Shown here: positions 530 through 47,991 of the stretch, one piece after another
Layout: each line of letters starts with the position of its first letter
Position numbering within the stretch: the stretch's first letter is position 1
Assembly (NCBI GenBank): GCA_029260825.1
Contig: JAJDCM010000367.1
Span: 8,456 to 72,455 of the forward strand
DNA length: 64,000 nt
Direction of reading: 5' to 3'
Source: Planctomycetota bacterium
Lineage (GTDB): Bacteria > Planctomycetota > JACOTG01 > JAJDCM01
Notes under the pieces: model-generated
Seen by the model: the letters and a program-made list of their open reading frames with translations, nothing else
Database searches by the model: none
Told to the model about the DNA's origin: nothing
Made by a program: the position numbers and the translations under genes

Positions 530-1270
530 GTGATCATCGCAGGAGCGATCCTGTGTGCAGCCTCAGTCCTGGCCCCCTCGTTCGGGACAACAATCCTCAG
601 AGCCGCCGGGGTGTTGATCCTTCTCGCCATCCTCTCCCGAAAGAACCAGGCCGTTCTGGTCTCTGGATTCACACTCTGCGCAGCTCTGCTTGCCCTGATA
701 TATCCTGAAGGCGTCTACTGGCCGATCCACCTCGTCGTCCCCCTGACTGGCTACAGTATCCTGGCCGCGGCTTGGCCCAAGATGAGATCATCAATTCAAT
801 GGCCACGGCTCGGGCAGTGGACTATCGGCGTGAAGCTGCTTGTTGTCGCCGTGGTTCTCCTGTCCACCGCGGGACTGCTTGGTTGGTACCTGCTCGCCCA
901 ACCCAATCTCTCGGAACTCCGGGGCACGATCTCGGGTGTACCGGGTTGGGCAATCCTGTTGGCAGGTCTTGGATTTGCAGCGACAAACGCGGCCTTGGAA
1001 GAAGCCATCTTCCGAGGGGTGTTTCAAGACGCATTCGAAAGTGCGGCGGGAAAAACCTGGCTTGCCGTTGTGCTTCAGGCGACCCTTTTCGGCGTGTACC
1101 ACTACAGCGCTACCTCCGTGCCCGACGGCGTCATCGGGGTCGTGCTGACATTTGCGTACGGGATCATGCTCGGTTACTTACGCGTGGCTGCAAACGGCCT
1201 CATGGCCCCCTGGGTGGCGCATACGATCGCCGATGCGGTGGTGTTTGCGCTGATCATGGGGAACCGATAA
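530..1270 (+). CDS. CPBP family intramembrane glutamic endopeptidase (CAAX protease/Abi)
   Basis: Multi-TM protein with EEAIFRG, FGVYH and HTIAD motifs. Confidence 0.85.
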   Translation: MIIAGAILCAASVLAPSFGTTILRAAGVLILLAILSRKNQAVLVSGFTLCAALLALIYPEGVYWPIHLVVPLTGYSILAAAWPKMRSSIQWPRLGQWTIGVKLLVVAVVLLSTAGLLGWYLLAQPNLSELRGTISGVPGWAILLAGLGFAATNAALEEAIFRGVFQDAFESAAGKTWLAVVLQATLFGVYHYSATSVPDGVIGVVLTFAYGIMLGYLRVAANGLMAPWVAHTIADAVVFALIMGNR

Positions 1271-1325
1271 CCCCCGCACCATCTCCAGCACATCCCGGCA
1301 GAATGCCCGGCAATCACGGTGCGTC
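1271..1325 (+). repeat. 55-bp dispersed repeat, copy 1
   Basis: CCCCCGCACCATCTCCAGCACATCCCGGCAGAATGCCCGGCAATCACGGTGCGTC matches 4573-4626 with 5 substitutions and 1 indel. Confidence 0.8.
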
Positions 1326-1341
1326 ACGCTGTAGGCACAGA

Positions 1342-2094
1342 TCATGTCCCGGTTTCGACGGAGGTTTCCCAGCCGTCGTACAGACCGTCATGCTCGGCGG
1401 CGAGATCGTACAGCTCGAGGACAGCGTTGTTGATCGTCACACTGTCGACCGCACTGACACGAGCGATCTGGAGGGCGAAAGGCCGATCCCCGCTCCCTTC
1501 ATCCCGCTCCTCCTGACTGGAGTAGCCCCTCTCAATAACGCCAGCCAAAAACCGAGAGCGATTCTCGGAGGATCCGAAGTAGAGCCAGTGACAAATTTCT
1601 CGTTCGATCGCGTGGTCGTCTCCCTGGGATTCCAGCTGCTCGAGGACTCGATAATTCTGGATCACCTGCATCTCACGGGGAGATGGATAGAGAAAACTGA
1701 GATAGGTGGACCACTCCGGATCCTCTCCGCTACCTGTCTCGAACTCGTAGTCCGAATAGGCGACCATCACGGACGAGAGGAGGGCCTCCGTGCGGCGACC
1801 GTTCACGCAGTAGAGATAGAAATCTCGACAGCCGTCGCACGTGTTCCGACCCACGTAGACGATCGTTGAATCCGCTGCTACCGCTTCGGTCAGGTCGTCC
1901 TCGATCTTCACGAGCTGCTTGAATTCGGCCTCGCTCGACAGCCCGTCTTCTCGGGGGTTTCGCATGTAGAGGCGAAGCCAGGCCATCTCGGAGAGGCCTT
2001 CGATCGGGGCCTCCGACACGACCCCCAGATCGATGAACAAAGACGCCGGCTTGTGGTCCACGTTGCAGAAGTAGAAGTCCCATTCCTTGCTCAT
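1342..2094 (-). CDS. DUF695 domain protein with C-terminal RraB-like domain
   Basis: MSKEWDFYFCNVDHKPASLFIDL...YVGRNT...DPEWSTYLSFLYP...QGDDHAIEREICHWLYF...GLYDGWET. The frame is open to 2307; the start was chosen at the family-like N-terminus. Confidence 0.75.
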   Translation of the reverse strand: MSKEWDFYFCNVDHKPASLFIDLGVVSEAPIEGLSEMAWLRLYMRNPREDGLSSEAEFKQLVKIEDDLTEAVAADSTIVYVGRNTCDGCRDFYLYCVNGRRTEALLSSVMVAYSDYEFETGSGEDPEWSTYLSFLYPSPREMQVIQNYRVLEQLESQGDDHAIEREICHWLYFGSSENRSRFLAGVIERGYSSQEERDEGSGDRPFALQIARVSAVDSVTINNAVLELYDLAAEHDGLYDGWETSVETGT

Positions 2095-2387
2095 AGGCCT
2101 ATTGTCCGGCAGGAACCGGAGTTCATCAACTGAGAGTTTCTTCCAGTACATCCCGATGATTATAGGGATGAGGAAGATCCCAATAGCCACGGGGCATCCT
2201 AGTCCTTTGGTTTTTTCGTTCATCGTTCGATTTGACTTTGCCGTTAACCTAGCACGATTCGTCAATTGTCGCCGGGAGGCAGGCACAGCACAAAACTCTG
2301 GGCTCATTGATCGAGCGAATTTGAGTAGTTCTCCTGTGGCTCCCGATTATTCTTCATCCCTACACCTCTTGCACTTACGACGATCAT

Positions 2388-2660
2388 GCAGCGCCACAAT
2401 CTCCTTGGCAAAATCCGTACGCGGAAAGAATGATCGGCACCCTCCGGCGAGAGATCCTCAACCACGTTATCGTGCTCGGTGAGAATCACCTCCGGCGGAT
2501 CGTTTCAAGATATTTGAATTATTATCACGAAGTGCGGCCACATCTCTCGTTGGACCGGAACTCTCCGATTCCGCCGAGGGTTGACCCGCCAGGAAACGGA
2601 CAAGTGAATTCCACGCCGATGGTCGGTGGCCTTCATCATCGGTACACGCGAGCTGCGTAA
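2388..2660 (+). mobile_element. Integrase core domain, C-terminal fragment (transposase remnant)
   Basis: APQSPWQNPYAERMIGTLRREILNHVIVLGENHLRR...YYHEVRPHLSL...GGLHHRYTRAA. The N-terminal part is absent. Confidence 0.9.
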
Positions 2661-2847
2661 CGATCCCAATTCAACGAATCACCTCGGTCACTCCCCCGGG
2701 ACTCCATGCGCACTTTCCCGCCCAAGGCCTCTGACGACTTGACTCCTGGACAAATGAAGGTTCATCCAACCATCGGAGCTACCGCGTCGCCAAATGGCAG
2801 GTCAACGCTGGGCTCCTTTCGGTCCGGATGGCATTATCGGGAGGGAC

Positions 2848-2908
2848 AGGAGAACCGCGTTTTCAAAGAGCAACTCCGAGGAAAACGACTCACGGCTCAC
2901 CAACGATC
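2848..2908 (+). pseudogene. Short N-terminal scrap of the same integrase/transposase family
   Basis: QENRVFKEQLRGKRL followed, after a frameshift, by RLTND. This resembles the ENRVLKEQL.GKRLRLTDDQ N-terminus of this family. Confidence 0.55.
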
Positions 2909-3355
2909 TCACAACCTACCAGCCTTGCGTTCCCTCTTCACAGCCTCGACAACCAACGGATTTGAGAGATCTCGGTGCCACCAATGCGTGCACTCTTTTT
3001 CATTCGCTCGTCTTCTATTGTCAGCAATTCTGAAGAGATACAGAAGCAATAGAAAGGAATCTTCCGCATCTGTTCCTTTCAACGAGACAAGTTTTTGGAG
3101 CACTTCGTTATTAACGCCCTTTCGAAGAATCACACAAACACTGCGTGTGGCCTTTATCGGAGCTGCTGAGATCGTAGCCTCCATGTCTTGGTTACTCGCC
3201 GAAGCCTGCTGCACTAGTTCACAAACGTTGCGCAATAGTGAAGGAACTTCTTCGGGCTTCCTCGCCAAGTATATTTTTTGAATCGCCTGATCATCAACAA
3301 CTCCCTGCGCCCATTGATTAATGAGGATTTCCTCATCGATTGAGAGGTAATTCAT
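2909..3355 (-). CDS. DUF5958-like hypothetical protein
   Basis: EEILINQWAQG...LFRIADNRRR...CTHWWHRDL; GGGGA upstream of the ATG at 3355. Confidence 0.6.
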   Translation of the reverse strand: MNYLSIDEEILINQWAQGVVDDQAIQKIYLARKPEEVPSLLRNVCELVQQASASNQDMEATISAAPIKATRSVCVILRKGVNNEVLQKLVSLKGTDAEDSFLLLLYLFRIADNRRRANEKECTHWWHRDLSNPLVVEAVKRERKAGRL

Positions 3356-3521
3356 TGCATCCCCTGGGAGTGAATGTGATGTGAGCTCGCCAGTTCCAGA
3401 ATGTCCGAATATCCTGACAGACATCAATCCGGTGCGTCGGTTGCCCGGATCCTGCTCAGGCACTATGATAGACGTGACGTTAGGTTCTGGCTATGTCGTT
3501 TCAAGAACCATCGAGAAACCC

Positions 3522-3851
3522 ATGCATGAATGGTCCAATGACCCAACCCAAAGCTCTGATCTCGCCCAATACATACGCAAGCACCATTCCGACCTCTATT
3601 CCGCAAATGAAACCCAAGCCCTTAAGACAGCGATTCTACTGTTCAAGCAGCCATCACGGATTAACCTAATGGGCAACTTCGAGGTCACGCGCAATTCCGC
3701 TTCGCTCATCGTGGACGCCGTCCTGGAAAAAGCGGGAAGAAGAATCCTCAGCGAGTCCCGAGATGCGATGCGTCTTCCCTTCTGCCCAAAGCGCAGCGGG
3801 ATCCTTTGCAGTCCCAAGGCGCGGCAATGCCTCGCCTGCGGACATGATTGA
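3522..3851 (+). pseudogene. Hypothetical protein with degenerate C-terminal zinc ribbon, probably decayed
   Basis: Ends CPKRSGILCSPKARQCLACGHD*H. Similar proteins, as I recall them, end CPxC...CxxCGHDWH, which suggests C>R and TGG>TGA changes. Confidence 0.4.
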
Positions 3852-3973
3852 CATGCAGAATAGCGGAAAGGGCAAACCCCAAACGGTTGCCATCTCCAGC
3901 ATATTTCCCACAGTCCTCGTTCTTGAGGAGAAAAATAGGGTAGCTTCAGGGTTTCTTACGTTATCATTCTTGC

Positions 3974-4444
3974 ATGAGTAGCTGGTCGAACCTTAGAAAA
4001 CTGATTCGCGAACGACTTCTGCCGGATCTCCAGAAGCAGGTGGATCTCCATTATACCGTCTACGAGGGAGGAGACGGCGAGGAGAAAAATTGGCGCTTTT
4101 GGGTCACCATTGAAGGAGAAGACGTATTCTCAACTGATTTCTGGGACTATTTCAAATCGGAGGATGTGATCAAGCGTGAGGAAAAACTCGGTCGCCCAGT
4201 TTATTATGACGAAGCGCGAGAGCTTGGCGCACGTGGGGTCGATGATTTCCTGGAGGCGTTGAAGAGTTATCTAAACCTCTCGATTGAGAATGCTCGCAGC
4301 TCGCGGGAACCGATCATTCGCGCTCTCTCTATCATTGACAAGCGAACCGGAAAGAACACCTTCGAAAGGCTCACAATTCCTCCCGGTGAACACGGCTTGG
4401 TAACGGCATTCTACGAACTCCGACGAAAGCTGAACAAAAGATAG
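3974..4444 (+). CDS. SF0329-like conserved hypothetical protein
   Basis: WSNLRK...VDLHYTVY...WVTIEG...YLNLSIE...IIRALSIIDKRTGK pattern. Confidence 0.6.
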   Translation: MSSWSNLRKLIRERLLPDLQKQVDLHYTVYEGGDGEEKNWRFWVTIEGEDVFSTDFWDYFKSEDVIKREEKLGRPVYYDEARELGARGVDDFLEALKSYLNLSIENARSSREPIIRALSIIDKRTGKNTFERLTIPPGEHGLVTAFYELRRKLNKR

Positions 4445-5140: not shown

Positions 5141-5647
5141 TCAAATCACTTTGACCTCCTCCTCCCATTCGACCCCCTCGTCAGGAACCGGGAGAGCTCG
5201 AACGGTGAGAACCGGAACAGGGCTTTTCCGCACGACTTTCTCGGCCGTGCTTCCAAAAAGAACGTGCTTCAAACCGGTGTGGCCATGAGTGGCAATCACG
5301 ACAAGGTCAATGTCCAACCTTTCGATTTGCCTCAGGATTTCTGCGACCGCATTTTCGGCCTCTACGACAGTGACCTCAAAGGGCACCTCTCCAAGACGAT
5401 CCTTGATCCTGTCCTGGATTTTCTCCTTCATGACCTTCCTGTTGTTCACCGCGATTTCCGCGATGTTCGTCGGCACCACCATGCCTCCGTACGGTGACAC
5501 GCAGGTCACGGCCAGAGGGATCACCGAAAGAAAAACAAGCTGACTCTCACCAGGAACGGCCATCGCCAGCGCCGGTTCCAAGGCGGCAAAAGAGCAGTCC
5601 GATCCATCGGTGGTCACGAGAATCTTCTTCGCAACGCTCTTCATCAC
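5141..5647 (-). CDS. Universal stress protein
   Basis: KILVTTDGS...IDLVVIATHGHTG...FGSTAEKVVRKSPVPVL; GGAGGAG RBS. Confidence 0.92.
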   Translation of the reverse strand: MMKSVAKKILVTTDGSDCSFAALEPALAMAVPGESQLVFLSVIPLAVTCVSPYGGMVVPTNIAEIAVNNRKVMKEKIQDRIKDRLGEVPFEVTVVEAENAVAEILRQIERLDIDLVVIATHGHTGLKHVLFGSTAEKVVRKSPVPVLTVRALPVPDEGVEWEEEVKVI

Positions 5648-5737: not shown

Positions 5738-6226
5738 CTACCTTCCATCAAGAGGACCAATCGCCTGGGAGGCTCGCCATCGCTGGGCGTCGACATCAAG
5801 GTCATCGGGAAGCGAGAGGCTCCTGATCGTAAGCACGGGAACAGGACTTCTACGGACCAATGCCTCGGCCTTACTTCCGATGAGAACTTGCGAGAGCCCT
5901 GACCAACCGTGAGTGGCCGTTACCACGAGGTCGGCTTTCAGTCGTCGAATACTCACCAGGAGCTCAGAGACAACTCGAGAGGACGTCTCAACCACGATCT
6001 CGATCGGCCGATCAGGCCTCGCCCCGCCCATGGTCAGAGCACGGTTTTCAATCTTCTTCTTCGCGATCTGGAGATTGACTTCGGGTCTCTTCGACGGCGC
6101 GCAAACATGGAGGACGATGAGCTCCGCGCCCCATCGATTCGCAAGCGTAACCGCAGGACCCCACGCTCTCCAGGAGACGTCGGAGAGATCAGTAGTAAGA
6201 ACGATTCGTTTGATGCTGAAGGACAT
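5738..6226 (-). CDS. Universal stress protein
   Basis: RIVLTTDLS...ADLVVTATHG...IGSKAEALVRRSPVPVL; AAGGAGG RBS. Confidence 0.9.
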   Translation of the reverse strand: MSFSIKRIVLTTDLSDVSWRAWGPAVTLANRWGAELIVLHVCAPSKRPEVNLQIAKKKIENRALTMGGARPDRPIEIVVETSSRVVSELLVSIRRLKADLVVTATHGWSGLSQVLIGSKAEALVRRSPVPVLTIRSLSLPDDLDVDAQRWRASQAIGPLDGR

Positions 6227-6299: not shown

Positions 6300-6313
6300 T
6301 TGACACCGATCAA
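6300..6313. promoter_or_regulatory. FNR-type box
   Basis: TTGAC-ACCG-ATCAA, 74 bp upstream of the usp start. Confidence 0.7.
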
Positions 6314-6438: not shown

Positions 6439-6452
6439 TTGACCAGGATCAA
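6439..6452. promoter_or_regulatory. FNR-type box
   Basis: TTGAC-CAGG-ATCAA in the usp/kynA divergent region. Confidence 0.65.
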
Positions 6453-6787: not shown

Positions 6788-7582
6788 ATGACCATCAAGG
6801 ATGATCTTGACTACTCGACCTATCTGGACGTCGATCACCTTCTTGCTCTCCAGAAAGTCCGCTCTGATCCTCCGGAGCATGACGAGATGCTATTCATCGT
6901 CATCCACCAGGTGTACGAGCTGTGGTTCAAGCTTCTCATTCACGAACTCGACAAGATCGGACAGGACTTCGACTCCAGTGACTTGACAGGAGCGACGAGC
7001 ACCTGGAAGCGCTGCTGCAAGATTCTCAAAGTTCTAGTTCACCAGCTCGATGTGCTGGAGACGATGACGCCGCTTTCATTCAAGAGCTTCCGGGATCGCC
7101 TCGACACCGCCTCCGGGTTTCAATCCCGGCAGTTTCGGGAGCTGGAGTTTTTCCTCGGGTACAAGCGCCAGGGGATGCTCAGGTTCTTTGGAGCGAACTC
7201 GGAAGATCGACGTCACGTCCAGCGACGCCTCGAGGAACCATCCCTGGTCGACCGCTTTCGCCGATTTCTTGAGCAGAGAGGCCTCTCTGCATCCAAAACG
7301 AACCGCCAAAATCCCGTGACTTCTCCCACTGGCCCAGACGCCCTCATCCAGGAACAGATCCTCCGGCTCTACCGAGCCGACGACGAGATGGTTCCTCTGT
7401 TCGAGCTGATGACCGACTTCGACGAAGGGCTTCAGGAATGGCGGTACAGGCACTACATGGTTGTCTTGCGAACCATCGGAGACCGAAAGGGAACCGGAGG
7501 ATCCGAGGGGGCCGGCTTTCTGAAGGAATCGCTATTTGCACCGATCTTCCCGGATCTCTGGGCGATTCGCGGCAGGATGTAG
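6788..7582 (+). CDS. kynA: Tryptophan 2,3-dioxygenase
   Basis: HDEMLFIVIHQVYELWFK, SGFQSRQFRELEF, WRYRH, GTGGSEG. Confidence 0.95.
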   Translation: MTIKDDLDYSTYLDVDHLLALQKVRSDPPEHDEMLFIVIHQVYELWFKLLIHELDKIGQDFDSSDLTGATSTWKRCCKILKVLVHQLDVLETMTPLSFKSFRDRLDTASGFQSRQFRELEFFLGYKRQGMLRFFGANSEDRRHVQRRLEEPSLVDRFRRFLEQRGLSASKTNRQNPVTSPTGPDALIQEQILRLYRADDEMVPLFELMTDFDEGLQEWRYRHYMVVLRTIGDRKGTGGSEGAGFLKESLFAPIFPDLWAIRGRM

Positions 7583-7648: not shown

Positions 7649-9229
7649 TTAATCGTTCTCGAACCATGAATGCTCGGGACGTGAAAGGATCCCGTTGATG
7701 ACGCTCGACACCCGATCCGCAGCTTCGTCCTGACCATCCTCCCTGGCATGTTCAAGGATTTCCCGAGCCTGGGGGATCAGTTCCTGATAGAAGCGTTCGG
7801 CGACCTCGTACATCCCGTGCCAGTGAGTGTAATCGGGAGCCATCATGGACGCGCCATGTCGAGCCCGCCTTCCCTCATGATGCCAGAGGTAGAACCACGT
7901 CCACTCGATCTCCTCATCAAACTGCTTCTTGCTGATGAACTCCTCATCGCTCAACGCCTTCATGATCGCTTGTCCCGGTTTTGCAAACTTCTCATTGAAG
8001 AGGACAAGGAAGTCATCGTACTGGGAATAGAAGGCATCCACGTAGTCAGGAGTGTGGCAGTGAGTGCATACGTTTTTCATCCGTTTGCGCTTGTCGATGG
8101 CGAAGTCGTGGATGAGCGCCTTTCGCTTCACCGGGTCGGTTTCCTTCACGACCTTGCCGTTGATATCAGTATCAAGGACGAGACTCACCGGCGGTCGATT
8201 CGTCCACGAAATGCGCTCACCCGGGTCGTGGGTGACTTTCCCGCCATTTCTGGAATGTCCAGACATGTGACAAGTGGCACAAGTCGGGGCCTGGGCATAG
8301 TCTTCCCCCAAGACCCAGTCCTTGCCATCCAGGTTCATCTTGTCCTTCAGATCCCGGTAAGCAACTCCGTGCTTTGACTCCTCAAAGATCTCTTTCTGGG
8401 GATGATCGGGGCCGAGGTGGCACTTTGCGCAATTCTCCGGCTGCCGAGCCCGACGGGGCGAGAAGTCATGTCGGCTATGGCAAGCAGAGCAAGAGCCGCT
8501 GGATCCATCAAGGTTGAGCCGGCCGATACCTGTGTTGGGCCAGGTTCCAGGGTCGAATAGGGGTCGTCCATTCGCGTCGGTCTTGATCCGGGAGAGAGCC
8601 TCTACGTTGGTCGGAATCCCGTCGGGACCAGGTGCGAGATCATCGACCGTAATCGCCTGCCCCTCGGTCGCCTGGAGTGCCACCTTCGAGCCATGACATT
8701 GCTGGCATCCAAGAAGAGAGCTCGACATCCCGTTAACGGACTGAATATCGGGTCGCCCCGGCGTCGGCGAGTGAGGGTTAAAACTGCCTCGAAACCCCTC
8801 CACGGTCTCGGCAAGAAAGTTGTCAAGAGACGCAAGGATGTTTCCGCCAGCAGCATGATGGCTCTGCGCAAACTCCGCGGCTTCGGTTGGATGACACCGA
8901 CTACAGTCCAAAGGAGTGACGACGGTAGCAATATCCACACCGTAGTGATCAAACGTGTCGGGATCACTCTCGCCGCTCTGGTGACACTCGACACACCCCA
9001 CGCCCTTCTCGGCATGGGTGCTTCCTTCCCAGTGGGCGATGATCCCGGGATTCTGCTGCTGGTGACAGTCAACGCAGCTCCGGGAGCTGTCGGGGACCGA
9101 TATCGAGTGAGAGCTGAGACCCGTTTCCTCTCGACGCCTGACAACCTCGAGGAACTGAACAATCACCAGGGACGCCAGAAACAGCAGGCCCAGGATACCG
9201 ATAATTACCTTCTTGATCTCAAGGTTCAT
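7649..9229 (-). CDS. Membrane-anchored octaheme cytochrome c, hydroxylamine oxidoreductase (HAO) family
   Basis: N-terminal TM helix; eight CxxCH (CVDCH, CVECH, CSRCH, CQQCH, CSACH, CAKCH, CATCH, CTHCH); GPDHPQ and HHEGRRARHGASMMAPDYTHWHG. Confidence 0.9.
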   Translation of the reverse strand: MNLEIKKVIIGILGLLFLASLVIVQFLEVVRRREETGLSSHSISVPDSSRSCVDCHQQQNPGIIAHWEGSTHAEKGVGCVECHQSGESDPDTFDHYGVDIATVVTPLDCSRCHPTEAAEFAQSHHAAGGNILASLDNFLAETVEGFRGSFNPHSPTPGRPDIQSVNGMSSSLLGCQQCHGSKVALQATEGQAITVDDLAPGPDGIPTNVEALSRIKTDANGRPLFDPGTWPNTGIGRLNLDGSSGSCSACHSRHDFSPRRARQPENCAKCHLGPDHPQKEIFEESKHGVAYRDLKDKMNLDGKDWVLGEDYAQAPTCATCHMSGHSRNGGKVTHDPGERISWTNRPPVSLVLDTDINGKVVKETDPVKRKALIHDFAIDKRKRMKNVCTHCHTPDYVDAFYSQYDDFLVLFNEKFAKPGQAIMKALSDEEFISKKQFDEEIEWTWFYLWHHEGRRARHGASMMAPDYTHWHGMYEVAERFYQELIPQAREILEHAREDGQDEAADRVSSVINGILSRPEHSWFEND

Positions 9230-9257
9230 TCTTCACACTCGTTTGGTTGATTGTGGA

Positions 9258-10316
9258 TCAATGGGCGACAAACGCTTCCCAAAGCGTGAGGCCAATCAAG
9301 GCGAACACCGCCAGGATTCCGAGCCACACACTGAATTCCGACCCCTTCCATCGGCGCCGGATCGCAGCGTCAATAAAGGGCCAAAGAAACATGACAAAGA
9401 CGATCAAACCCATGGAGAGAATCGCCGCAGTGCCCGAGAACAACTTCAGCCACCGGAAGGCGACATAAAAGAACCACTCGGGCTTGATGATCTCCGGAGT
9501 GACGAGCGGATTGGCCTCCGGGCCCATGTTTGCGGGCACAACGGTGGCGAGGAAACTCAGAAGGATCATCAGAACCAAGCCGATGAAAATCTCCATCAAG
9601 AAGTGATCGGGGAAAAACGCAAAATGGCCGCCCCCTTCTCCCTTGGCTTGATCCTTCTTGAACTGGAATTCGGTGACGCCCTGCAGCCGGATGAGAGAAA
9701 TGTGGACCACCAGGAGGAACACCATCGAAACCGGAAGCACGGCAGCATGCAGAATGAAGAAGCGAGACAAAGTCTGCTCTCCATAGGAATCTCCGGCGAG
9801 CATCATCCTCTTCATGAAAGGCCCAAGAACAGGGACCATATCCGCAATATTCGCTCCTACCGTCGCACCCCAGTAGCTGAGCTGCTCGTAGACGAGACTG
9901 TAGCCAGTGAAACCGGTCATCAAGGTCAAAACGAGCAACGTCATCCCGATCATCCAGTTGAGATCACGCGGCTTTCGATAGGATCCGGTGAAGTAGACCC
10001 TCATCTGATGGAGAATAATGCTGGCAATCATGAGGGTCGCGGCCCACTTGTGGAGGCTACGAAAATACCAGCCGTATGCGACATCATGAGTGATGTAGCG
10101 AACCGACTCGTACGCGGTGCTCGACGAAGGTTCGTAATAGAACGCGAGCAGAATTCCGGTCACGATCTGGATAACAAAGAGGTAGGCCGGCGTACCGCCA
10201 AGGCAGAACCACCAGTGCTTCAAGTGGTTCGGCACCGGTTCGTTGGTGAATTCCCTCAGCTGCGATCCGCTGACCGGGATTCGTTCTTTCAGCCAGGAGC
10301 CAACAGTATTCATCAC
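9258..10316 (-). CDS. Cytochrome b (b6-like, fused with a subunit-IV-like part) of a Rieske/cyt b complex
   Basis: WFCLGG, RSLHKWAA, ILHQMRVY, FTGYSL...YWG, RFFILH, KPEWFF. Confidence 0.92.
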   Translation of the reverse strand: MMNTVGSWLKERIPVSGSQLREFTNEPVPNHLKHWWFCLGGTPAYLFVIQIVTGILLAFYYEPSSSTAYESVRYITHDVAYGWYFRSLHKWAATLMIASIILHQMRVYFTGSYRKPRDLNWMIGMTLLVLTLMTGFTGYSLVYEQLSYWGATVGANIADMVPVLGPFMKRMMLAGDSYGEQTLSRFFILHAAVLPVSMVFLLVVHISLIRLQGVTEFQFKKDQAKGEGGGHFAFFPDHFLMEIFIGLVLMILLSFLATVVPANMGPEANPLVTPEIIKPEWFFYVAFRWLKLFSGTAAILSMGLIVFVMFLWPFIDAAIRRRWKGSEFSVWLGILAVFALIGLTLWEAFVAH

Positions 10317-10343
10317 GTAGACACCCTTCTTCTCAACGATTTA

Positions 10344-10883
10344 TCAGATGTTGCGCGATGAGCTGGGGCAGCACGAAGCATTTGCTGTCGAGACATTGAG
10401 AGGAACAAGAATATAAAGGAGGGTCCCTACAACCTTGAGTGGGAAGCGGGTTAACGGTTGGTTTGCATCCTTGGGTGGCCCAGCGATGGGCTCTCCCGCG
10501 GCATCAAAGGCACCATTGTGACACGGGCAAAAGAATCGATCATTTTGCGCCTCCCAGTGAACCTGACAGCCGAGGTGAGGACACACGCTCGAGAGAGCGA
10601 CAAAATCCTCTGCGGTCTTCCCGGATCCCTTTCTTGCCAGAGTCACTCCTGCTCCTTCGGGAGTTCGATAATCAAAACTATCTCCCTCCTTGAGGCTTTC
10701 CACGTCGGTGACGAACATCCAGGCTTTCTTTCCATCATCTGTCTGATAGAGGAATCGAGCACCCAGAAAAGCAAAGGTTCCATAGCCAGCGGCAAGGCCA
10801 CCTGCCATGGCGAAGGTCGTGCCCGAAACGAGAAAGTTCCTCCGGGAGACCCCCTCATCGGGTAGCTCAGGTGTTTCGGACAT
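10344..10883 (-). CDS. Rieske 2Fe-2S subunit
   Basis: Tat motif SRRNFL plus TM helix; CPHLGC and CPCHNGAF boxes; GAGGAGG RBS. Confidence 0.95.
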   Translation of the reverse strand: MSETPELPDEGVSRRNFLVSGTTFAMAGGLAAGYGTFAFLGARFLYQTDDGKKAWMFVTDVESLKEGDSFDYRTPEGAGVTLARKGSGKTAEDFVALSSVCPHLGCQVHWEAQNDRFFCPCHNGAFDAAGEPIAGPPKDANQPLTRFPLKVVGTLLYILVPLNVSTANASCCPSSSRNI

Positions 10884-10951: not shown

Positions 10952-10965
10952 TTGACCCAGGTCAA
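10952..10965. promoter_or_regulatory. FNR-type palindrome
   Basis: TTGAC-CCAG-GTCAA upstream of the Rieske gene. Confidence 0.65.
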
Positions 10966-10996: not shown

Positions 10997-11010
10997 TTGA
11001 TCTCGATCAA
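10997..11010. promoter_or_regulatory. Consensus FNR box
   Basis: TTGAT-CTCG-ATCAA in the Rieske/porin divergent promoter. Confidence 0.85.
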
Positions 11011-11085: not shown

Positions 11086-12501
11086 ATGAGGTTGTCAAGC
11101 CTGGCAATGCTGGCATCAGTTCTGATCGTCCCGATGTCCAGGGAAGTTCAAGCTCAGGAAAAAAACTCGAATACCAAGGAGGACGGCTCGATCAGACAAG
11201 AGCTCAGTGAGCTTCGTCGCGAGGTCGATGACCTGAGAGAGTGGAAGCTTCAGCAGGAGGAGACGGCCCCGGACGGGACGAGCGAGTCTCGGTTCAAACT
11301 CCCGGGATCGATGGGGCTTACCGTGTCGGGACAGATCCGAGTTCGAGAGGAGTACCGCAGTCATCTTTATAGTCCAACCGATCCAGACGGAAACGAGCGA
11401 AACGACTTCACCCGACTGCGGACTCGACTCCGATTCGACTTTGAGGTCAATGAGCAGCTCCAGGCAATCGTGGAACTCCAGGACATTCGCCTTCTCGGAT
11501 CCGAGGGCTCAACGACGGCGGACGCCGAGGGGCTTGATCTCAAACGAGCGGAAATGTTGATCAAAGACCCGTTCGGGCTCCCCGCCGAAATCGAGATCGG
11601 GCGATTTGTCATGTTCTACGGCAAGCAGAGAGTCATTGGCCACCTCGAGTGGTTTGATCAGGGACGTACTTTCGATGGGTTCCGCATCAAAGCTCAGGGG
11701 ACGTCATGGTTTGCCGATCTCTTCGGGGCAAGAATCAATGACCTCGGCGCTTCCGACGAGGACGACAGCGATCTTGTCGGTATCTACGCAGGAACCAAAG
11801 AGCTCATGAGCGGGCTTGATGTCGAGGGGTACATCCTTCATACTCGCGATCAGCGTCGCGGCACCTCGGAGCGTGGAACCCAGGGAACGACCGGGTTCAC
11901 AACATTCGGAAGCCGCTTGTTCGGAACCTGCTGCGGGCTCGAATATGAAACGGAAATTCTGTTCCAGACCGGCGAGGTTTTCGATGACAATCTGACCGCG
12001 TACGGTGGAGTTGTAGCGATCGGATACAAGTTCGAGGACTGTCCAATGACCCCCAGACTCGGGTTCGAAGTCGACTACGCCACGGGCGACCGGAACGGGA
12101 CGGATGGCGATACTGAGCAGTTGCAGGTACTATTCCCCACGAATCACATGCACTATGGAAACGCGGATCTGGCAGCTTTGAGCAACCTCTGGGATTTCCG
12201 GACATCGCTGGGGTTCCAACCATCGGAGACGGTAAGAGTGTCCCTTGATCATCATCACCTCTCCCTTCAAGACGAGGAAGGGGCGTGGGTCAATGCCGGA
12301 GGAGCTACAATCCGCCCAGGCGCCGCGGGAGCTTCCCGTCATCTGGGGGAAGAAGTCGATCTTACGGTCTGGTGGGATGCCATCGAAAACCTCGAGCTCC
12401 AGTTCGGATGGAACCACTTCTTCGGAGGCGGCTTTACGGACGACACGGGAAGACAACGAGACGCGGTGTTCACCTACATCCAGGCGCTTCTCAAATTCTA
12501 G
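11086..12501 (+). CDS. Alginate export family outer-membrane beta-barrel
   Basis: Signal peptide, coiled coil, GQIRVREE, RLRTRL, GRTFDG, LFPTNH, C-terminal Phe. Confidence 0.8.
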   Translation: MRLSSLAMLASVLIVPMSREVQAQEKNSNTKEDGSIRQELSELRREVDDLREWKLQQEETAPDGTSESRFKLPGSMGLTVSGQIRVREEYRSHLYSPTDPDGNERNDFTRLRTRLRFDFEVNEQLQAIVELQDIRLLGSEGSTTADAEGLDLKRAEMLIKDPFGLPAEIEIGRFVMFYGKQRVIGHLEWFDQGRTFDGFRIKAQGTSWFADLFGARINDLGASDEDDSDLVGIYAGTKELMSGLDVEGYILHTRDQRRGTSERGTQGTTGFTTFGSRLFGTCCGLEYETEILFQTGEVFDDNLTAYGGVVAIGYKFEDCPMTPRLGFEVDYATGDRNGTDGDTEQLQVLFPTNHMHYGNADLAALSNLWDFRTSLGFQPSETVRVSLDHHHLSLQDEEGAWVNAGGATIRPGAAGASRHLGEEVDLTVWWDAIENLELQFGWNHFFGGGFTDDTGRQRDAVFTYIQALLKF

Positions 12502-13376: not shown

Positions 13377-13390
13377 TTGACCTGAATCAA
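13377..13390. promoter_or_regulatory. FNR-type box
   Basis: TTGAC-CTGA-ATCAA, 82 bp upstream of the CBS gene. Confidence 0.7.
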
Positions 13391-13471: not shown

Positions 13472-14020
13472 ATGAGCCGAAACCGGAGCCTGACCGACGC
13501 GGCATCCCAGTTCCCGGATCGCCTGGCCCTGTTGACGGCCTCGGATTTGATGACTCCAAACCCGGTCACGATCATGATCACCGCGACCGTGCCAGAAGCG
13601 GTTGCCGTGCTCACGGATCTCCATTTCAGTGGGGCGCCGGTTGTCGATGCAGATGGATGCCCGGTCGGCGTCATCAGTCGCACCGACATCGTGCGAAACA
13701 ATCACGAAGAAGTCGATCGAATTCAACCCAGCTCCGAGCCCGATGAGACTGATCTCTGGAGAACTCTGGTCGAATCTCGCGATGACTTCCTGATCGAGAA
13801 GGTGAACGAGACGCGGGTCGAGGACATCATGACTCCCCTTGTGTTCTCAGTGAAGCCGAACTGTGGGGGCGTCGATATCGTGACCAAGATGCTCAGTCAA
13901 GACGTCCACAGGATCCTTGTTGTGGACGATGAGGGAACTCTTCAGGGTGTGATCAGCTCCATGGATATCTTGAGAGAACTGGTAGATTCAACCCGATCCA
14001 GGACGGCGCAAGACACATGA
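13472..14020 (+). CDS. CBS domain pair protein
   Basis: ASDLMTPNP...SGAPVVD...VGVISRTD; VEDIMT...VHRILVVD...GVISSMD; AAGGAGG RBS. Confidence 0.9.
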   Translation: MSRNRSLTDAASQFPDRLALLTASDLMTPNPVTIMITATVPEAVAVLTDLHFSGAPVVDADGCPVGVISRTDIVRNNHEEVDRIQPSSEPDETDLWRTLVESRDDFLIEKVNETRVEDIMTPLVFSVKPNCGGVDIVTKMLSQDVHRILVVDDEGTLQGVISSMDILRELVDSTRSRTAQDT

Positions 14021-14040: not shown

Positions 14041-14706
14041 CTACGACCCTTCCTTCAGCACCCATTCCGTGGCGCGACGTGCGAGCTCGGTGGAAGTCTG
14101 AATCTGGAGCTTTTCCTTGATGTGCTCCCGGTGTGACTCCACGGTCTTCGGGCTGATGGAAAGGCGTTCGGCGATCTTCTTCGTGCCAAGCCCCGTTCCG
14201 ATGAGCTCAAAAATTTCGAGCTCCCTGTTGCTGAGCCGATCAACTGTAGCGGCCTCTACTTTCGCTGAGCGCCCGACGAACTTACCGAGCATTCGGTTCG
14301 CGATCGTGTCACTGACATAAATCTCCCCCTTGTGGACCCGGCGAATCGCTCGAATGAGAAGCTCCGTTCCTTTCTGCTTCATGATGTAGCCGGAGGCGCC
14401 GGCTCGGAGAGCACGCTCAGCGTAGAGAGCTTCGTCATGCATGGAAAGGACGAGAATCCGGATGGCAGAGTTTCGGGCCTGTATCTGCTTGATCAGATCG
14501 AGGCCGCCAATATCTTGCAAGGAGAGGTCGACCACCGCGACATCGGGTGGTGGCTCGATCTTCTTCAGAGCATCGTGATACCCTTCCGCTTCTCCACAGA
14601 CGCAAAGACCTGGCGTCTGGTTGATCATGGCAATGAGGCCTTCCCGGACGATGGGATGATCGTCAACAAGGAGAATCTTGATCGGCGATCCGGAATCACT
14701 CGGCAT
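14041..14706 (-). CDS. NarL/LuxR family response regulator
   Basis: LVDDHPIVREG receiver domain; LSNRELEIFELIGTGL...SPKTVESHR HTH. Confidence 0.95.
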   Translation of the reverse strand: MPSDSGSPIKILLVDDHPIVREGLIAMINQTPGLCVCGEAEGYHDALKKIEPPPDVAVVDLSLQDIGGLDLIKQIQARNSAIRILVLSMHDEALYAERALRAGASGYIMKQKGTELLIRAIRRVHKGEIYVSDTIANRMLGKFVGRSAKVEAATVDRLSNRELEIFELIGTGLGTKKIAERLSISPKTVESHREHIKEKLQIQTSTELARRATEWVLKEGS

Positions 14707-15775
14707 GGGAGCCCCCCATCAAGTTGCTTGCATGGTGGGGATCAAAATGACAATCCACAACCATTCCTCCTCCCTCGCGTGCTCCGATCGTGAGGATTCC
14801 ACCAATGTGTCGAGTCCGGTAGTGCATCATGTGAAGACCACGCCCACCTTGATTCGCCAAGGGAAACGTGAAACCCATGCCGTCGTCCGAAACCATGAGT
14901 CTCCCTTGTCGGCCCTGCACCGTAAGGGTGACCCAGATGTTCTTCGCTTCAGCATGCTTGAGAGCGTTGTTGACCGCCTCGCTTGCAATGTAATAGAGCT
15001 GAAGAGCAACGCTCTGATTATCGACCGGAGCTGGAAGTTCATTGTGGAAGTGACATGCCGGTCCTTGCGCTCGATTCACAGAATCCACAAGCTCTTCCAG
15101 GGAGATCATGAGCCCCTCTTCGTCCACGGTGACGGGAACCAGCCCCCGAACTAACGCGCGAGTGTGGTCGATGGCTCCGTTGACCAGGCTAACGATACGT
15201 GCAGCGTCCTTGGCCGCGGCGGGATTTGTTTTCCCCAGACTTGTCCCAAGAGCGCCAGCAAGGAGCGCGATTCCCGTCAGCTCCTGGCCCAACCCGTCGT
15301 GAAGATCTCGCCCAATGCGTCCTTGCTCCTCACTGCTCGTGTTCAAAACCTCTCGCTCCAGCTGCTTGAGCTCGGATATGTCCCGAACGATGCCGGTGAA
15401 GAGGAGGCGTTCGTTAACTCGAGTCTCACTGATCGCCAGATGAATGGGAAACGTCGACCCGTCTTTCCGCCGGGCCACGACCTCACGCCCGGATCCGATC
15501 ACCTTGGGGATTCTTGTAGCCACGTAGGCCTGGATATAACCGTCGTGCTCGCTCCGATATGGATCGGGCATGAGAATGGAAATGTTCCTTCCCAGGAGTT
15601 CCTCGTCGGTATAGCCAAAAAGGCGGTGGACCGCAGGATTCACCGTGAGGATCGTGCCCAGGGGGTCAATCGTAATAATTGCATCTACCGCGGCCTGAAC
15701 CATGGATTCGAAAACGGCAAGGGACTCCTCCGGATTCGAACCTTGCACGGCATGATTTTCCTTCTTACTTTCCAT
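14696..15775 (-). CDS. Cytoplasmic PAS sensor histidine kinase (FixL-like heme PAS + HisKA_3/HATPase)
   Basis: LMPDPYRSEHDGYI...IGSGREVVARRKDGSTFP; RIGRDLHDGLGQ; EAVNNALKHA; DDGMG; no TM segment. Confidence 0.9.
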   Translation of the reverse strand: MESKKENHAVQGSNPEESLAVFESMVQAAVDAIITIDPLGTILTVNPAVHRLFGYTDEELLGRNISILMPDPYRSEHDGYIQAYVATRIPKVIGSGREVVARRKDGSTFPIHLAISETRVNERLLFTGIVRDISELKQLEREVLNTSSEEQGRIGRDLHDGLGQELTGIALLAGALGTSLGKTNPAAAKDAARIVSLVNGAIDHTRALVRGLVPVTVDEEGLMISLEELVDSVNRAQGPACHFHNELPAPVDNQSVALQLYYIASEAVNNALKHAEAKNIWVTLTVQGRQGRLMVSDDGMGFTFPLANQGGRGLHMMHYRTRHIGGILTIGAREGGGMVVDCHFDPHHASNLMGGSHAE

Positions 15776-15890: not shown

Positions 15891-16898
15891 TCAGCACGCG
15901 AGGGCCAGCTCGTCAAGGGATTCCGGATCCTCGATCCAGACCGTCCTTCCTTCCACCTCGATAATTCGGCTCTCCTGCATGCTTCTGAGCCCCCGACTCA
16001 ACGTCTCGGGAGCGACCCCCACAAGGGACGCGATCTCGAACTTGGGGAGGCGGAGTCGGATAGGATTCGGCCCCCGGCGAAATTGCTCCAGCAAGTAGCG
16101 AGCAATTTTGCTCATGGATTGCCCTGTCGCAAGATGGGCGCTCATCCGAAGAAGCTTCTCGTTTCTGAGAGCGAGGACCCGGAGGACTCGCTTGCAGAAT
16201 CCGGAATCCTTTTCCACCAGAGTCCGGAAGGTGGACGGTTTGACAATCAGGACGGTGGCCTCCGTGATGGACTCGGCGTTTCCGGTGTGCGGCTGTTCAA
16301 GGAGAACGGCCTCCTCGGCAAACACATCGCCAGGCTCGAGGGCGAGAAGATTGAAGGGGCGCCCGTCGTAGTTTGTGCGGCAGACCTTCAGCAATCCCTT
16401 GAGGACAACAAAAAATCCGCGGCAGGATTCGCCGTCGTGAACGAGGCTCTCCTTGGGGGAGAGATGACGGACACGGCTCGTCTCAGCGATCAGGGAGAGA
16501 TCCTGAGATGACAGCCCCTTGAAGAACGCGGTATCGGTGACAACCTGGATCATTCGTGCGGCGGGAATCCGAGCCTCACGAGCGCGTCGCGTCACAACAA
16601 GGGGACACTGGGGCAACGTCCCGCAGTTGGCCTTCTCCTGCAAGGTACGAACGACCTCATTGATTCGTTCGGTCGTCCGTGCGTCGAAGGAACGGGGCTT
16701 CCCGTCCAGGTCGCGCACATCCTCCAGCTCGATGGTTGTCTTGCCGCCGTCGAATTGAGCGGAGAGACAGAGTTCAACATCTTCAGAATCGGGTCCGATA
16801 GGTCCGGCGGGAGTTCGAAAACGGACAGGACCTTCCGGGTTCGGGCGAGCCTCACACCACTCACATCGTGTCCCTAGAGCTTCTGCGGACTTCGTCAT
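15891..16898 (-). CDS. Crp/Fnr family regulator with Cys-rich N-terminal extension
   Basis: cNMP-binding domain and GVAPETLSR HTH; AAGGAGG RBS supports the long start. Confidence 0.88.
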   Translation of the reverse strand: MTKSAEALGTRCEWCEARPNPEGPVRFRTPAGPIGPDSEDVELCLSAQFDGGKTTIELEDVRDLDGKPRSFDARTTERINEVVRTLQEKANCGTLPQCPLVVTRRAREARIPAARMIQVVTDTAFFKGLSSQDLSLIAETSRVRHLSPKESLVHDGESCRGFFVVLKGLLKVCRTNYDGRPFNLLALEPGDVFAEEAVLLEQPHTGNAESITEATVLIVKPSTFRTLVEKDSGFCKRVLRVLALRNEKLLRMSAHLATGQSMSKIARYLLEQFRRGPNPIRLRLPKFEIASLVGVAPETLSRGLRSMQESRIIEVEGRTVWIEDPESLDELALAC

Positions 16899-16924: not shown

Positions 16925-16954
16925 TTGATCACCATCAAACTTGATCACCATCAA
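16925..16954. promoter_or_regulatory. Two tandem identical consensus FNR boxes
   Basis: TTGATCACCATCAA at 16925-16938 and 16941-16954, immediately upstream of the Crp/Fnr gene. Confidence 0.88.
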
Positions 16955-43641: not shown

Positions 43642-43819
43642 TCTTGTTTTGGCCCCTGGAGAGTTTTCTCTCTCCCAATGATAGGGGGCCAAAAGGCCGC
43701 TTGCAAGCCTCCCTCCCATTCGCACGGTCGGTACCAGACGTAGGGCCACCAAATCGGGGGCGTGTCATCCCCCGCGGAGCATCCGGTCGATCCGAGGATT
43801 CGGATCCCAAGACATCCTT

Positions 43820-44538: not shown

Positions 44539-45282
44539 TCACTTTTTCTTGCGCTCGCGACGAGTCGAGGGTCGCTTCGATCGAGCCTTGAGTGGAACCG
44601 GCGCCTCCATCGGAACCCCCAGATAGAGGACCAGCGCACGAGTCATCTCTTGCACCAGAGCCTCGTCACCGGACACAACGGACTCTGCATGAGGAGCGTT
44701 TCCAAATAGGATCTTTTCTCGACAGGCAGAGATAACAAAGAACAACCCCATTTCGACCGCTCGCTCGGGGTCGGGGTGTTCAATCTCGCCTCGCTTTTCC
44801 AGAAGAACCTCAACAACTCCACGATGCAGACGCGTTCGAGCCGATCGGATTGCGGGAGAAATCTCCTTCGGCCGTTGCCTGGCAAATGCGGTGACTGCTC
44901 TCATCAACCCGCGGCGCTGGCGATAGCTCCGCACGGTCCGGCCAACAAGCCGCTCGGCGCGCTCGACCAGACTCAACCCGACCCACAACTCAGGAGCGAG
45001 GACTTCCTCCATTTGCTCGGTGAGAGTCTTGTCGTACCTTTCATAGAGAGCGGGAAGAAGCGACTCCTTCTGAGGAAAGCGGGTGTAGAACGCCCCCACG
45101 GAGGTCGCGGCCGCGCGAACCACATCGGCGATGGTGATGTCCTCAAAGAGCTTCTCTTCAAGAAGCACTTCCATGGCATCAAGAATGCGCAGAAGAGTAC
45201 GCCGACTTCTCTCCTGGCGTGGCGGGCGGACACCAGCGAGGTTAGCCTCGGGCACCAAAGGAGAAGCGGCGGAGACGTGCAT
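44539..45282 (-). CDS. TetR/AcrR family regulator
   Basis: PRQERSRRT...ITIADVVRAAATSVGAFYTRF. Confidence 0.92.
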   Translation of the reverse strand: MHVSAASPLVPEANLAGVRPPRQERSRRTLLRILDAMEVLLEEKLFEDITIADVVRAAATSVGAFYTRFPQKESLLPALYERYDKTLTEQMEEVLAPELWVGLSLVERAERLVGRTVRSYRQRRGLMRAVTAFARQRPKEISPAIRSARTRLHRGVVEVLLEKRGEIEHPDPERAVEMGLFFVISACREKILFGNAPHAESVVSGDEALVQEMTRALVLYLGVPMEAPVPLKARSKRPSTRRERKKK

Positions 45283-45415: not shown

Positions 45416-46249
45416 ATGACAATCGGATCTTTAATTAGCTTATTGTTTCTTCGACCCATGACCCTTCGGAAATTCGCGATGCCCTACCCAACTCGAGCAT
45501 CTGCCGACGCTCATCTGATCGACGACCTCTTCAACCTTGCCATCATCTCGACAAGCATTGCCTTCCTGATCGTCCTTGCCATGCTCACCTATTTCGTGAT
45601 CGTGGGAATTCGACGCTCCCGGGGACACTACACCCACGGTACGTCCAAGCAGGCCTACATCTTCACCGCTCTTTTCGCCATCGTCGTCTTCATCGGACTA
45701 GACGTGAACCTCGCCTACTTCGACCAAAAAGCCTACGGCGTCGTGTTCAGCCGCGTTCCCGAGCCCAAGAACAACCTGGTCGTCCAGGTCTTCGCCAAGC
45801 AGTTCGAGTGGAACTTTCGGTACGCAGGAACGGATGAAAAATTCGGAACCGACGACGACATCATGACCGTCAACCAGCTCGTCGTTCCCACCAAAACGGA
45901 CGTCATCCTGAAGATGCAGAGCCTGGACGTCGTGCACTGTCTTTTCCTGCCGTCCCTCCGGATGAAGCAGGACGTCCTACCAGGCATGACGGTTTCTCTG
46001 ATCTTTCAAGCCAACCTGACCACCAAGGCCGAGAAAGAGCGAAGGAACGATCCAGAGTGGGTCTTCGAGATCGCGTGCGCCGAGTTCTGCGGCCTGAATC
46101 ACAGCGATATGAAAGGGAAGTTCCTCATCCTCGAAAAAGACGAGTACACAACCTGGGAAGAAGAGCAGTCGATCGCGGCCGCTGACTTCGTCGCACCCGA
46201 AGTCTGGGAGCACTGGATGGACGGCAACAGCGAGGAGAAAAGCGAATGA
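45416..46249 (+). CDS. coxB: Cytochrome c oxidase subunit II
   Basis: QFEWNFRY, DVVH, CAEFCGLNHSDM CuA motif. Confidence 0.95.
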   Translation: MTIGSLISLLFLRPMTLRKFAMPYPTRASADAHLIDDLFNLAIISTSIAFLIVLAMLTYFVIVGIRRSRGHYTHGTSKQAYIFTALFAIVVFIGLDVNLAYFDQKAYGVVFSRVPEPKNNLVVQVFAKQFEWNFRYAGTDEKFGTDDDIMTVNQLVVPTKTDVILKMQSLDVVHCLFLPSLRMKQDVLPGMTVSLIFQANLTTKAEKERRNDPEWVFEIACAEFCGLNHSDMKGKFLILEKDEYTTWEEEQSIAAADFVAPEVWEHWMDGNSEEKSE

Positions 46250-47982: not shown

Positions 47983-47991
47983 AAGGAAACG

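Follow-up and report, generated by a model that had tools for sequence, protein, structure and literature searches.

Octaheme cytochromes encoded next to Rieske and cytochrome b genes have been described before. In Nitrospira moscoviensis and N. japonica, the octaheme protein (ONR, or OCC) has two Rieske/cytochrome b genes (petBC) upstream, and a quinone-pool-linked reduction of nitrite to ammonium in the periplasm has been proposed for it (PMC6311188, PMC12342949, PMC6606698, PMC5767232). The Nitrospira ONR and its two upstream genes are reported to be co-expressed with nitrite as the only nitrogen source (PMC6606698), and according to a review the octaheme lacks biochemical characterization (PMC6311188). 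In Nitrospina gracilis, an atypical octaheme has been noted beside a b6f-like operon, an arrangement that Kuenenia and Methylomirabilis are said to share (PMC3578206). A Rieske/cytochrome b pair of Caldithrix abyssi (Cabys_2558/2557) adjoins an epsilon-Hao (Cabys_2556); the complex has been proposed to hand electrons directly to the octaheme and to generate proton-motive force (PMC5317091). Here we analyze an operon of this kind, consisting of genes for a Rieske protein, a cytochrome b and a membrane-anchored octaheme cytochrome c of the HAO family, in a 64,000-nucleotide (nt) stretch of a Planctomycetota genome (contig JAJDCM010000367.1; the whole stretch is called the window below). The architecture is already in print; the operon is real, conserved and of a known but biochemically uncharacterized kind, and full-text literature searches, which did not cover supplements, returned no biochemical study of such a complex. 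On balance, we think it probable that the three genes form one respiratory module, in which menaquinol would drive the reduction of nitrite (or of hydroxylamine or nitric oxide, NO) by the octaheme in the periplasm, and which would be induced at low oxygen.

By gene order and by description, the Nitrospira ONR-petBC genes are like those of the window, with Rieske, cytochrome b and octaheme in the same order. In a protein atlas, the cluster that is commonest in Nitrospirota ranks second (score, 0.96) and has the same three Pfam families, a match that we treat as a lead only. The role proposed in Nitrospira, however, is assimilatory and belongs to an aerobic nitrite oxidizer, whereas the context in our organism is one of NarG, NrfHA and hypoxia-type regulators. 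The C. abyssi genes are alike by description, with adjacent Rieske, cytochrome b and Tyr-less HAO-family octaheme genes, but they form part of a nap (nitrate reductase) gene cluster, whereas the genes of the window form a stand-alone three-gene operon. IhOCC of Ignicoccus hospitalis (4QO5) shares with the octaheme of the window the eight CxxCH motifs and the absence of a P460 cross-link (PMC9250108). It is archaeal, and the available text of PMC4429474 describes no Rieske/cytochrome b partner for it; the query family, in contrast, has a conserved N-terminal membrane helix. Cytochrome b6f and the Firmicute-type menaquinol:cytochrome c reductases share with the operon a b6-like cytochrome b, a Cys at the heme-ci position and a b6f-type Rieske protein. 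The b6f complex is made of split b6 and subunit IV, cytochrome f and small subunits, whereas the window has a fused gene of 352 amino acids (aa) that carries a PEWF rather than a PEWY motif. No gene for cytochrome f, cytochrome c1 or a small subunit was found in the operon.

A conserved three-gene operon

The three genes were first proposed to form a tight operon in a reading made from the sequence alone (the sequence-only reading), and all of the motifs and coordinates given there were found in the sequence (Table 1). The intergenic gaps calculated from the open reading frame (ORF) coordinates are 27 and 28 nt. Because the next neighbor downstream is convergent and the next neighbor upstream is divergent, the unit consists of the three genes.

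A protein database search with the octaheme scored 8000 candidates, 7886 of which passed an E value of 0.001, with the best 120 at 71 to 100% identity; among 50%-identity representatives, 1921 passed 0.001 and 257 passed 1e-30. Across 185,579 species genomes (one genome per species), octaheme relatives were present in 351 stretches, and the counts of loci given here are from the best 80 of these unless stated otherwise. These 80 loci are labeled Planctomycetota, Acidobacteriota, Gemmatimonadota, Eiseniibacteriota, Binatia and others. In a survey of operon conservation, 70 loci had 1800 nt or more upstream of the octaheme gene; in 68 of them, Rieske and cytochrome b genes preceded it in the same order and on the same strand, and this arrangement is therefore more than chance. 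Of the two exceptions, one (L076) has cytochrome b only and the other (L071) neither gene. In the latter, a Planctomycetota locus (840-4191), the octaheme gene is immediately preceded by a hybrid-cluster protein gene (Prismane; E value, 1.8e-169). A member of the Alginate_exp family, to which the divergent porin of the window belongs, is a recurrent neighbor: of the 80 related loci, 17 have one at a distance of no more than 6 kb.

In a FastTree phylogeny of joined cytochrome b and octaheme sequences (71 rows), the phylum labels require 7 changes, compared with 27.7 in shuffles, and the query lies inside Planctomycetota; inheritance has therefore been mostly vertical within phyla. The octaheme retains about 70% identity between phyla. 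Full-length relatives of at least 68% identity were found in only 5 of 40 other genomes of the same phylum, so the trait is patchy within the phylum.

The genome assembly (8.37 Mb in 425 contigs; 90% complete) contains one HAO-family gene and three cytochrome b genes. Another contig (C403:1-14000) carries a 289-aa Rieske protein, a split cytochrome b of 301 aa, a 309-aa ORF without a Pfam match, a 1036-aa multiheme cytochrome c, COX2, COX1 and CtaA. The complex of the window is therefore an additional, specialized one. In the same genome, NarG scores above its cut-off and no NapA does, and NrfH adjoins NrfA on one contig as a canonical pair. NirK and NosZ (TIGR04246) were not found at this level of completeness; nor was NirS, for which PF02239 gave only weak beta-propeller matches. 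Within the window, a 968-aa beta-propeller protein (28882-31788) has weak matches to the cytochrome D1 heme domain (E value, 3.8e-7) and is by score no NirS. There are only two heme-copper oxidases, both with high oxidase scores, and no NorB-like third. The sequence-only reading saw no anammox genes in the window, and with its single HAO-family gene the genome is not an anammox one; no search was aimed at genes for ammonia oxidation or anammox.

Assignment of the octaheme within the HAO family

The octaheme has CxxCH motifs at residues 52, 79, 109, 175, 247, 267, 317 and 388, and no CxxCK motif is present in its gene (7649-9229). The N terminus is hydrophobic and forms a helix over residues 3-35 in an AlphaFold2 model of the protein (predicted local distance difference test score, 82.8; predicted template-modeling [TM] score, 0.72). 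A sequence search of the PDB returned IhOCC of Ignicoccus (4qo5; E value, 2.6e-45) and then the Kuenenia reducing HAO-like protein Kustc0458 (HAOr; 6h5l, 2.2e-24), with lower matches to Nitrosomonas europaea HAO (about 8e-18), Kuenenia HOX (4.4e-14) and HDH (5.9e-13). With a profile built from 38 diverse octaheme representatives, the E value for 4qo5 fell to 1.1e-107. The fold gave the same order: in a Foldseek search with the model, 4qo5 was found at an E value of 2.7e-17 (TM score, 0.63; identity, about 24%), followed by 6h5l (3.4e-10) and HAO (3.5e-9), and all ten chains listed, which come from eight entries of the HAO family, had a probability of 1.00. Octaheme Asp275-His276 aligned in HMMER to Asp267-His268 of N. 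europaea HAO (4fas), which we take to be the distal-pocket (active-site) pair, and each of the two residues is conserved in at least 90% of 40 family members.

Other octaheme folds matched poorly. The E values of the model against CxxCK-type ONR (2ot4, 3sxq and 8rv0) were 0.37 or greater, NrfA likewise gave no significant match, and neither did the MccA- and OTR-type folds. An ONR in the strict sense (the Thioalkalivibrio type), the motif order of which is three CxxCH, one CxxCK and four CxxCH (PMC10716430), was thus ruled out by the Foldseek result together with the lack of a CxxCK motif. IhOCC itself has been grouped with HAO and HDH in one clade ("clade 1") and termed an octaheme nitrite reductase without P460 heme (PMC9250108).

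The sequence-only reading assigned the octaheme to the reductive HAO homologs that lack the cross-linking Tyr, and described the protein as ending in MMAPDYTHWHG. The latter detail is incorrect: the motif spans residues 462-472, which leaves 54 residues to the C terminus, and it contains Tyr467. In the HMMER alignment to 4fas (columns counted from residue 433), N. europaea Tyr467 (NPGgWTYTEGW; profile, pd.yaewhg) fell on query His469 and Trp465 on query Tyr467, with a posterior probability of only 5 to 6 of 10 at the cross-link loop. An independent MAFFT alignment included the 12 octaheme-like HAO paralogues from G034, an anammox-like genome; six of these have a conserved "TY" tyrosine, which fell on query Trp470. 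The cross-linking Tyr was placed on query Tyr467 in neither alignment. Both Tyr467 and His469 are kept in all 120 of the closest homologues; among the 38 octaheme representatives, column 467 is aromatic in 30 and column 469 is Tyr in 2, and IhOCC has Trp in the column of query Tyr467 (HMMER). Octaheme Tyr467 is in precursor numbering and bears the same number as Tyr467 of mature N. europaea HAO by coincidence, the columns being different, which makes the match a trap for annotating by residue number.

A quick maximum-likelihood tree of 42 octaheme rows, rooted at the midpoint and with its reference branch labeled via the G034 paralogues rather than PDB sequences, parts a query group from an HAO/HDH-type group at a branch with 98% support in the Shimodaira-Hasegawa-like approximate likelihood ratio test (SH-aLRT). 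The query group holds 32 rows, 29 of them without the Tyr, and the HAO/HDH-type group holds six Tyr-bearing and four Tyr-less paralogues of G034. Collectively, the octaheme belongs to the HAO family and to its IhOCC branch, since sequence, fold and tree all place it nearer to IhOCC than to the HAO/HDH enzymes. It has no Tyr at the aligned cross-link column, where His or Trp stands instead, and is thus predicted not to be of the oxidative HAO/HDH (P460) type. As both HAOr and the epsilon-HAOs that lack the Tyr work in the reductive direction (PMC8042395), and as IhOCC and Kuenenia HAOr are the nearest solved relatives, the assignment to the reductive type agrees with these results.

The sequence-only reading also drew a parallel with anammox bacteria. 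The R/b-3 complex of Kuenenia stuttgartiensis (kuste4569-4574) combines Rieske/cytochrome b with a Tyr-less HAO-like protein, Kuste4574, and a role in nitrite reduction has been proposed for it (PMC12485887). Two Kuenenia Rieske proteins match that of the window at E values of 1.5e-8 and 3.1e-8, and R/b-3 and the operon share both the Rieske/cytochrome b pair and a Tyr-less HAO-family subunit. The anammox cluster presumably has further subunits, whereas the operon of the window has three genes only. G034 has 14 multiheme ORFs at HAO-family matches, of which the 12 octaheme-like ones were aligned. One of its HAO paralogues (489.2-490.9 kb; L108:1668-3434) comes after a cytochrome b gene at 486.6 kb. 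This paralogue is Tyr-less, yet it falls in the HAO/HDH-type group, across the 98% SH-aLRT split from the query, and is only 30% identical to the query, over residues 240-409. The G034 paralogue nearest to the query (L102:8700-10364) is 42% identical and shares the PDYTHWHG motif, and its 18-kb locus contains neither a Rieske nor a cytochrome b gene. The anammox Rieske/cytochrome b cluster is therefore an analogue and not an orthologue, because its HAO paralogue in G034 belongs to the other major HAO branch; the parallel holds as an analogy and fails as kinship.

Putative quinol-oxidizing subunits and a possible low-oxygen regulatory neighborhood

The best PDB match of the cytochrome b is cytochrome b6 (1vf5; E value, 1.7e-52), with WWFCLGG on the YCLGG of b6 and Cys38 aligned to Cys35 of cytochrome b6 at the heme-ci position. 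The heme ligands are His89/His103 and His190/His205, all four invariant in 36 sequences; the second pair aligns without gaps to b6 over helix D, with 14 residues between the two. The cytochrome b is therefore assigned to the b6 type with a Cys at the heme-ci site, where attachment of the heme is predicted. This Cys, which the sequence-only reading had noted, varies among relatives: in 86 loci (L002-L081, L083-L087 and L103), the position is Cys (FCLGG) in 30 and Ala (FALGG) in 50, and the motif is absent in 6. All 21 Planctomycetota-labeled loci that yielded the motif carry Cys, which among the other labeled groups was seen only in one Eiseniibacteriota, one Binatia and one unlabeled bin. The b6-type Cys thus stands for this protein, but it is lineage-specific within one orthologous complex and no trait of the family.

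Low-potential (menaquinol-type) Rieske proteins have a box II without the Ser and Tyr of CPCHGSxY. The box of the query, CPCHNGAF, is of this form, as the sequence-only reading had pointed out, and CPCHNGxF is invariant across the family (32 of 32). The best PDB matches are b6f-type Rieske proteins (first, 5cxm; E value, 1.6e-11). A low redox potential is thus predicted for the Rieske protein. The genome has two genes of the MqnA/MqnD family, as would be expected if menaquinone were made by the futalosine pathway, and this gene family, the CPCHNGxF box and the b6-like cytochrome b agree with the proposed link to menaquinol.

FNR control had been suggested for the operon. The divergent Rieske/porin promoter region contains the exact palindrome TTGATCTCGATCAA, the center of which precedes the Rieske ATG by about 120 nt and the porin ATG by about 82 nt; a scan for sigma-70 promoters and terminators gave nothing above chance (one promoter match found, 1.6 expected). 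The window has 9 boxes with at most one mismatch, compared with 2.54 expected and a genome average of 3.0 per 64 kb, and none of 100 shuffles reached 9. The stretch from 6.3 to 17 kb holds seven of these boxes, which precede the two universal stress protein (USP) genes, the divergent Rieske/porin region (one exact), a ZIP-family transporter ORF, the CBS-domain gene and the Crp-family regulator gene (two exact). The last two, the exact TTGATCACCATCAA boxes at 16925-16938 and 16941-16954, are 2 nt apart and just upstream of the first ATG of the regulator. If this ATG is used, the regulator has a 115-aa N-terminal extension without a Pfam match and with five cysteines (Cys12, 15, 44, 91 and 98), the spacing of which is non-canonical for an FNR [4Fe-4S] cluster. 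Its NCBIfam matches are FtrB (4.2e-27), FixK (1.9e-10) and Fnr (5.2e-7), all below cut-off. In the neighboring kinase, the His of SEHDGY aligns to the proximal His of FixL (R-H-E-H-D); the whole protein reaches an E value of 1e-33 against the FixL equivalog but 116.8 of the 850 bits required, so that only the heme-PAS domain qualifies as FixL.

There is an exact box upstream of the operon, but the adjoining regulator lacks a canonical FNR cysteine cluster, its neighbors are FixL/FixJ-like, and the box is found in none of 67 related loci. We therefore read the control as a putative FixLJ-FixK-like low-oxygen circuit. It resembles the FixLJ-FixK(-FtrB) cascade of alpha-proteobacteria in its heme-PAS kinase, LuxR-type regulator, FtrB/FixK-like Crp-family protein and TTGAT-N4-ATCAA boxes, and differs by NCBIfam scores below cut-off, a HisKA_3 kinase and the possible 115-aa Cys-containing extension. 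Because the related loci have no such box upstream of Rieske, the circuit on this operon appears to be specific to this lineage. What seems specific to this window is thus the FixL/FixJ/FixK-like neighborhood, together with its place on the Cys side of the Cys/Ala split at the heme-ci position.

Table 1. Features of the operon and its surroundings in the window
Feature	Positions	Strand	Remarks
Rieske [2Fe-2S] subunit, 179 aa	10344-10883	-	PF00355, E value 8.7e-12; Tat motif RRNFL; boxes CPHLGC and CPCHNGAF
Cytochrome b, 352 aa, b6-type part fused to subunit-IV-like part	9258-10316	-	PF00033, E value 2.9e-53, and PF00032
Membrane-anchored octaheme cytochrome c, 526 aa, HAO family	7649-9229	-	PF13447, E value 1.7e-21; eight CxxCH
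Exact Crp/Fnr-type palindrome TTGATCTCGATCAA (TTGAT-N4-ATCAA)	10997-11010	.	Divergent Rieske/porin promoter region
Imperfect palindrome TTGACCTGGGTCAA, 2 mismatches to the box	10952-10965	.	Overlaps a weak sigma-70-like match
LuxR/NarL/FixJ-type response regulator	14041-14706	-	Overlaps the kinase gene by 11 nt
Sensor histidine kinase, FixL-type heme-PAS and HisKA_3	14696-15775	-	FixL heme domain 1d06, E value 1.4e-29
Crp/Fnr-family regulator	15891-16898	-	cNMP-binding and HTH_Crp_2; ETLSR recognition helix
Tryptophan 2,3-dioxygenase gene	6788-7582		Convergent; next downstream of the operon
Alginate_exp-family outer-membrane beta-barrel (porin)	11086-12501	+	Divergent; next upstream; PF13372, E value 4.5e-53
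Two universal stress protein genes	5141-5647 and 5738-6226	-	Downstream of one-mismatch boxes 6300-6313 and 6439-6452
CBS-domain protein gene	13472-14020	+	Preceded by one-mismatch box 13377-13390
COX2, COX1 and COX3 genes, A-type-like oxidase	45416-48585		Best NCBIfam CtaD_CoxA, 588 bits, below cut-off

The A-type oxidase mentioned in the sequence-only reading was seen as the COX2-COX1-COX3 genes, which are A-type-like (Table 1). A TetR-family gene (44539-45282) lies upstream of them, and an Rrf2-family regulator gene (49191-49610) about 600 nt downstream on the opposite strand. Elsewhere in the window there are two fusions of about 940 aa, each of a Ser/Thr kinase with a C-terminal FGE-sulfatase (formylglycine-generating enzyme-like) domain (26030-28843 and 40897-43752), and further kinase genes at 20748-23468 and 52434-56339, the second with WD40 repeats.

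Proposed function and alternatives

In the mechanism that we favor, the low-potential Rieske protein and the b6-type cytochrome b would oxidize menaquinol in the membrane. The three proteins would be physically associated, and electrons of the high-potential branch would pass to the octaheme, tethered by its N-terminal helix on the periplasmic side and replacing cytochrome c1 or f. The octaheme, being cross-link-free and of the IhOCC type, would most likely reduce nitrite (probably to ammonium) and might act on hydroxylamine or NO as well. The operon would probably be turned on at low oxygen via the Crp/Fnr-type box and the FixL-, FixJ- and FixK/FtrB-like neighbors. We hold a broader proposal more tentatively, as a possibility rather than an expectation: that the operon represents a widespread Q-cycle-coupled, proton-motive menaquinol:nitrite (or N-oxide) reductase, with an IhOCC-type octaheme replacing cytochrome c1 and with two natural forms of cytochrome b.

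Several observations weigh against a low-oxygen, nitrite-reducing module. The alignment of the cross-link loop is modest, the HMMER and MAFFT placements are one column apart, and the conserved Tyr467 lies two to three residues upstream. The neighbors of the 80 closest cassette loci are heterogeneous, and nitrate reductase was not found among the 70 largest of the 148 neighbor cluster representatives from these loci. NrfH-NrfA is already present in the genome, which would make nitrite ammonification redundant; the nitrite-reductase role put forward in the sequence-only reading is thus retained here, but not as an exclusive one, since the genome also has NarG and NrfH-NrfA. As to the regulation, a box with at most one mismatch is absent within 300 nt upstream of Rieske in all 67 related loci; at up to two mismatches it occurs in 5 of the 67, compared with 7.2% of control windows, and no other 5-N4-5 palindrome is enriched. 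Exact boxes number 24 in the genome, compared with about 3.5 expected from base composition, and some of them adjoin unrelated genes: the 26 flanking ORFs are mixed (with USP, AhpC-like, FtsH and NuoD among them, and several that probably fall within genes). The distance from narG to a one-mismatch box is 2.6 kb, and the genome-wide search gave no box near nrfHA.

In another view, the octaheme would produce NO from nitrite, as Kuenenia HAOr does, or would serve chiefly to detoxify NO or hydroxylamine, and would not be an ammonium-forming respiratory enzyme. The presence of NrfH-NrfA for ammonification speaks for this view. HAOr, the second-best solved relative, turns nitrite into NO (PMC8042395), and a hybrid-cluster protein gene replaces the Rieske/cytochrome b pair next to the octaheme in L071. 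The query, however, is in the IhOCC branch and not the HAOr branch of the 42-row tree, the absence of a NorB-like enzyme, NirK and NirS from the 90% complete genome leaves no obvious sink for NO, and a Q-cycle complex would be a heavy investment for detoxification. We consider this view unlikely. The octaheme could also be an electron-transfer subunit only, a large substitute for cytochrome c1 that feeds an oxidase, NrfA or an extracellular acceptor. In 5 of the 80 loci, COX1 genes are indeed no more than 6 kb away from the cassette; the Asp-His pocket pair and the whole HAO fold are nonetheless kept at about 70% identity across phyla, beyond the needs of a wire, and a purely electron-carrying role is accordingly quite improbable.

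The nearest characterized relatives of the octaheme all act on N-oxides, and the MccA- and OTR-type folds gave no significant match, so that reduction of sulfite, selenite or tellurite has little to commend it, even though multiheme reductases of the superfamily are often promiscuous and the top NCBIfam score of the cytochrome b (231 bits against a cut-off of 290; cytochrome b6, 224 bits) is for ExtP, the b-type cytochrome encoded in an operon for selenite/tellurite reduction. Reducers of nitrite, sulfite and tetrathionate are listed in PMC9250108. That the complex runs oxidatively, with hydroxylamine or hydrazine oxidation feeding the quinone pool, is scarcely credible. Membership in the HAO family and a conserved Tyr467 close to the cross-link loop would be compatible with it, but the cross-link column has His or Trp, the nearest relatives are two Tyr-less solved structures, the genome has a single HAO-family gene, and the direction of Rieske/cytochrome b is quinol oxidation.

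If the menaquinol-driven nitrite reduction proposed here is correct, HAO-type octaheme nitrite reduction wired to Rieske/cytochrome b would be a common trait that is omitted by nitrogen-cycle gene surveys, which count only nrfA and CxxCK-type onr (PMC10716430). The module would then be an energy-conserving alternative to NrfHA, yielding more energy per nitrite than the NrfH-NrfA route. The Cys and Ala forms of the cytochrome b offer a natural comparison for the debated function of heme ci. The added value of this particular window is modest: it provides a regulatory hypothesis for expression work and shows that the Cys at the heme-ci position is lineage-specific.

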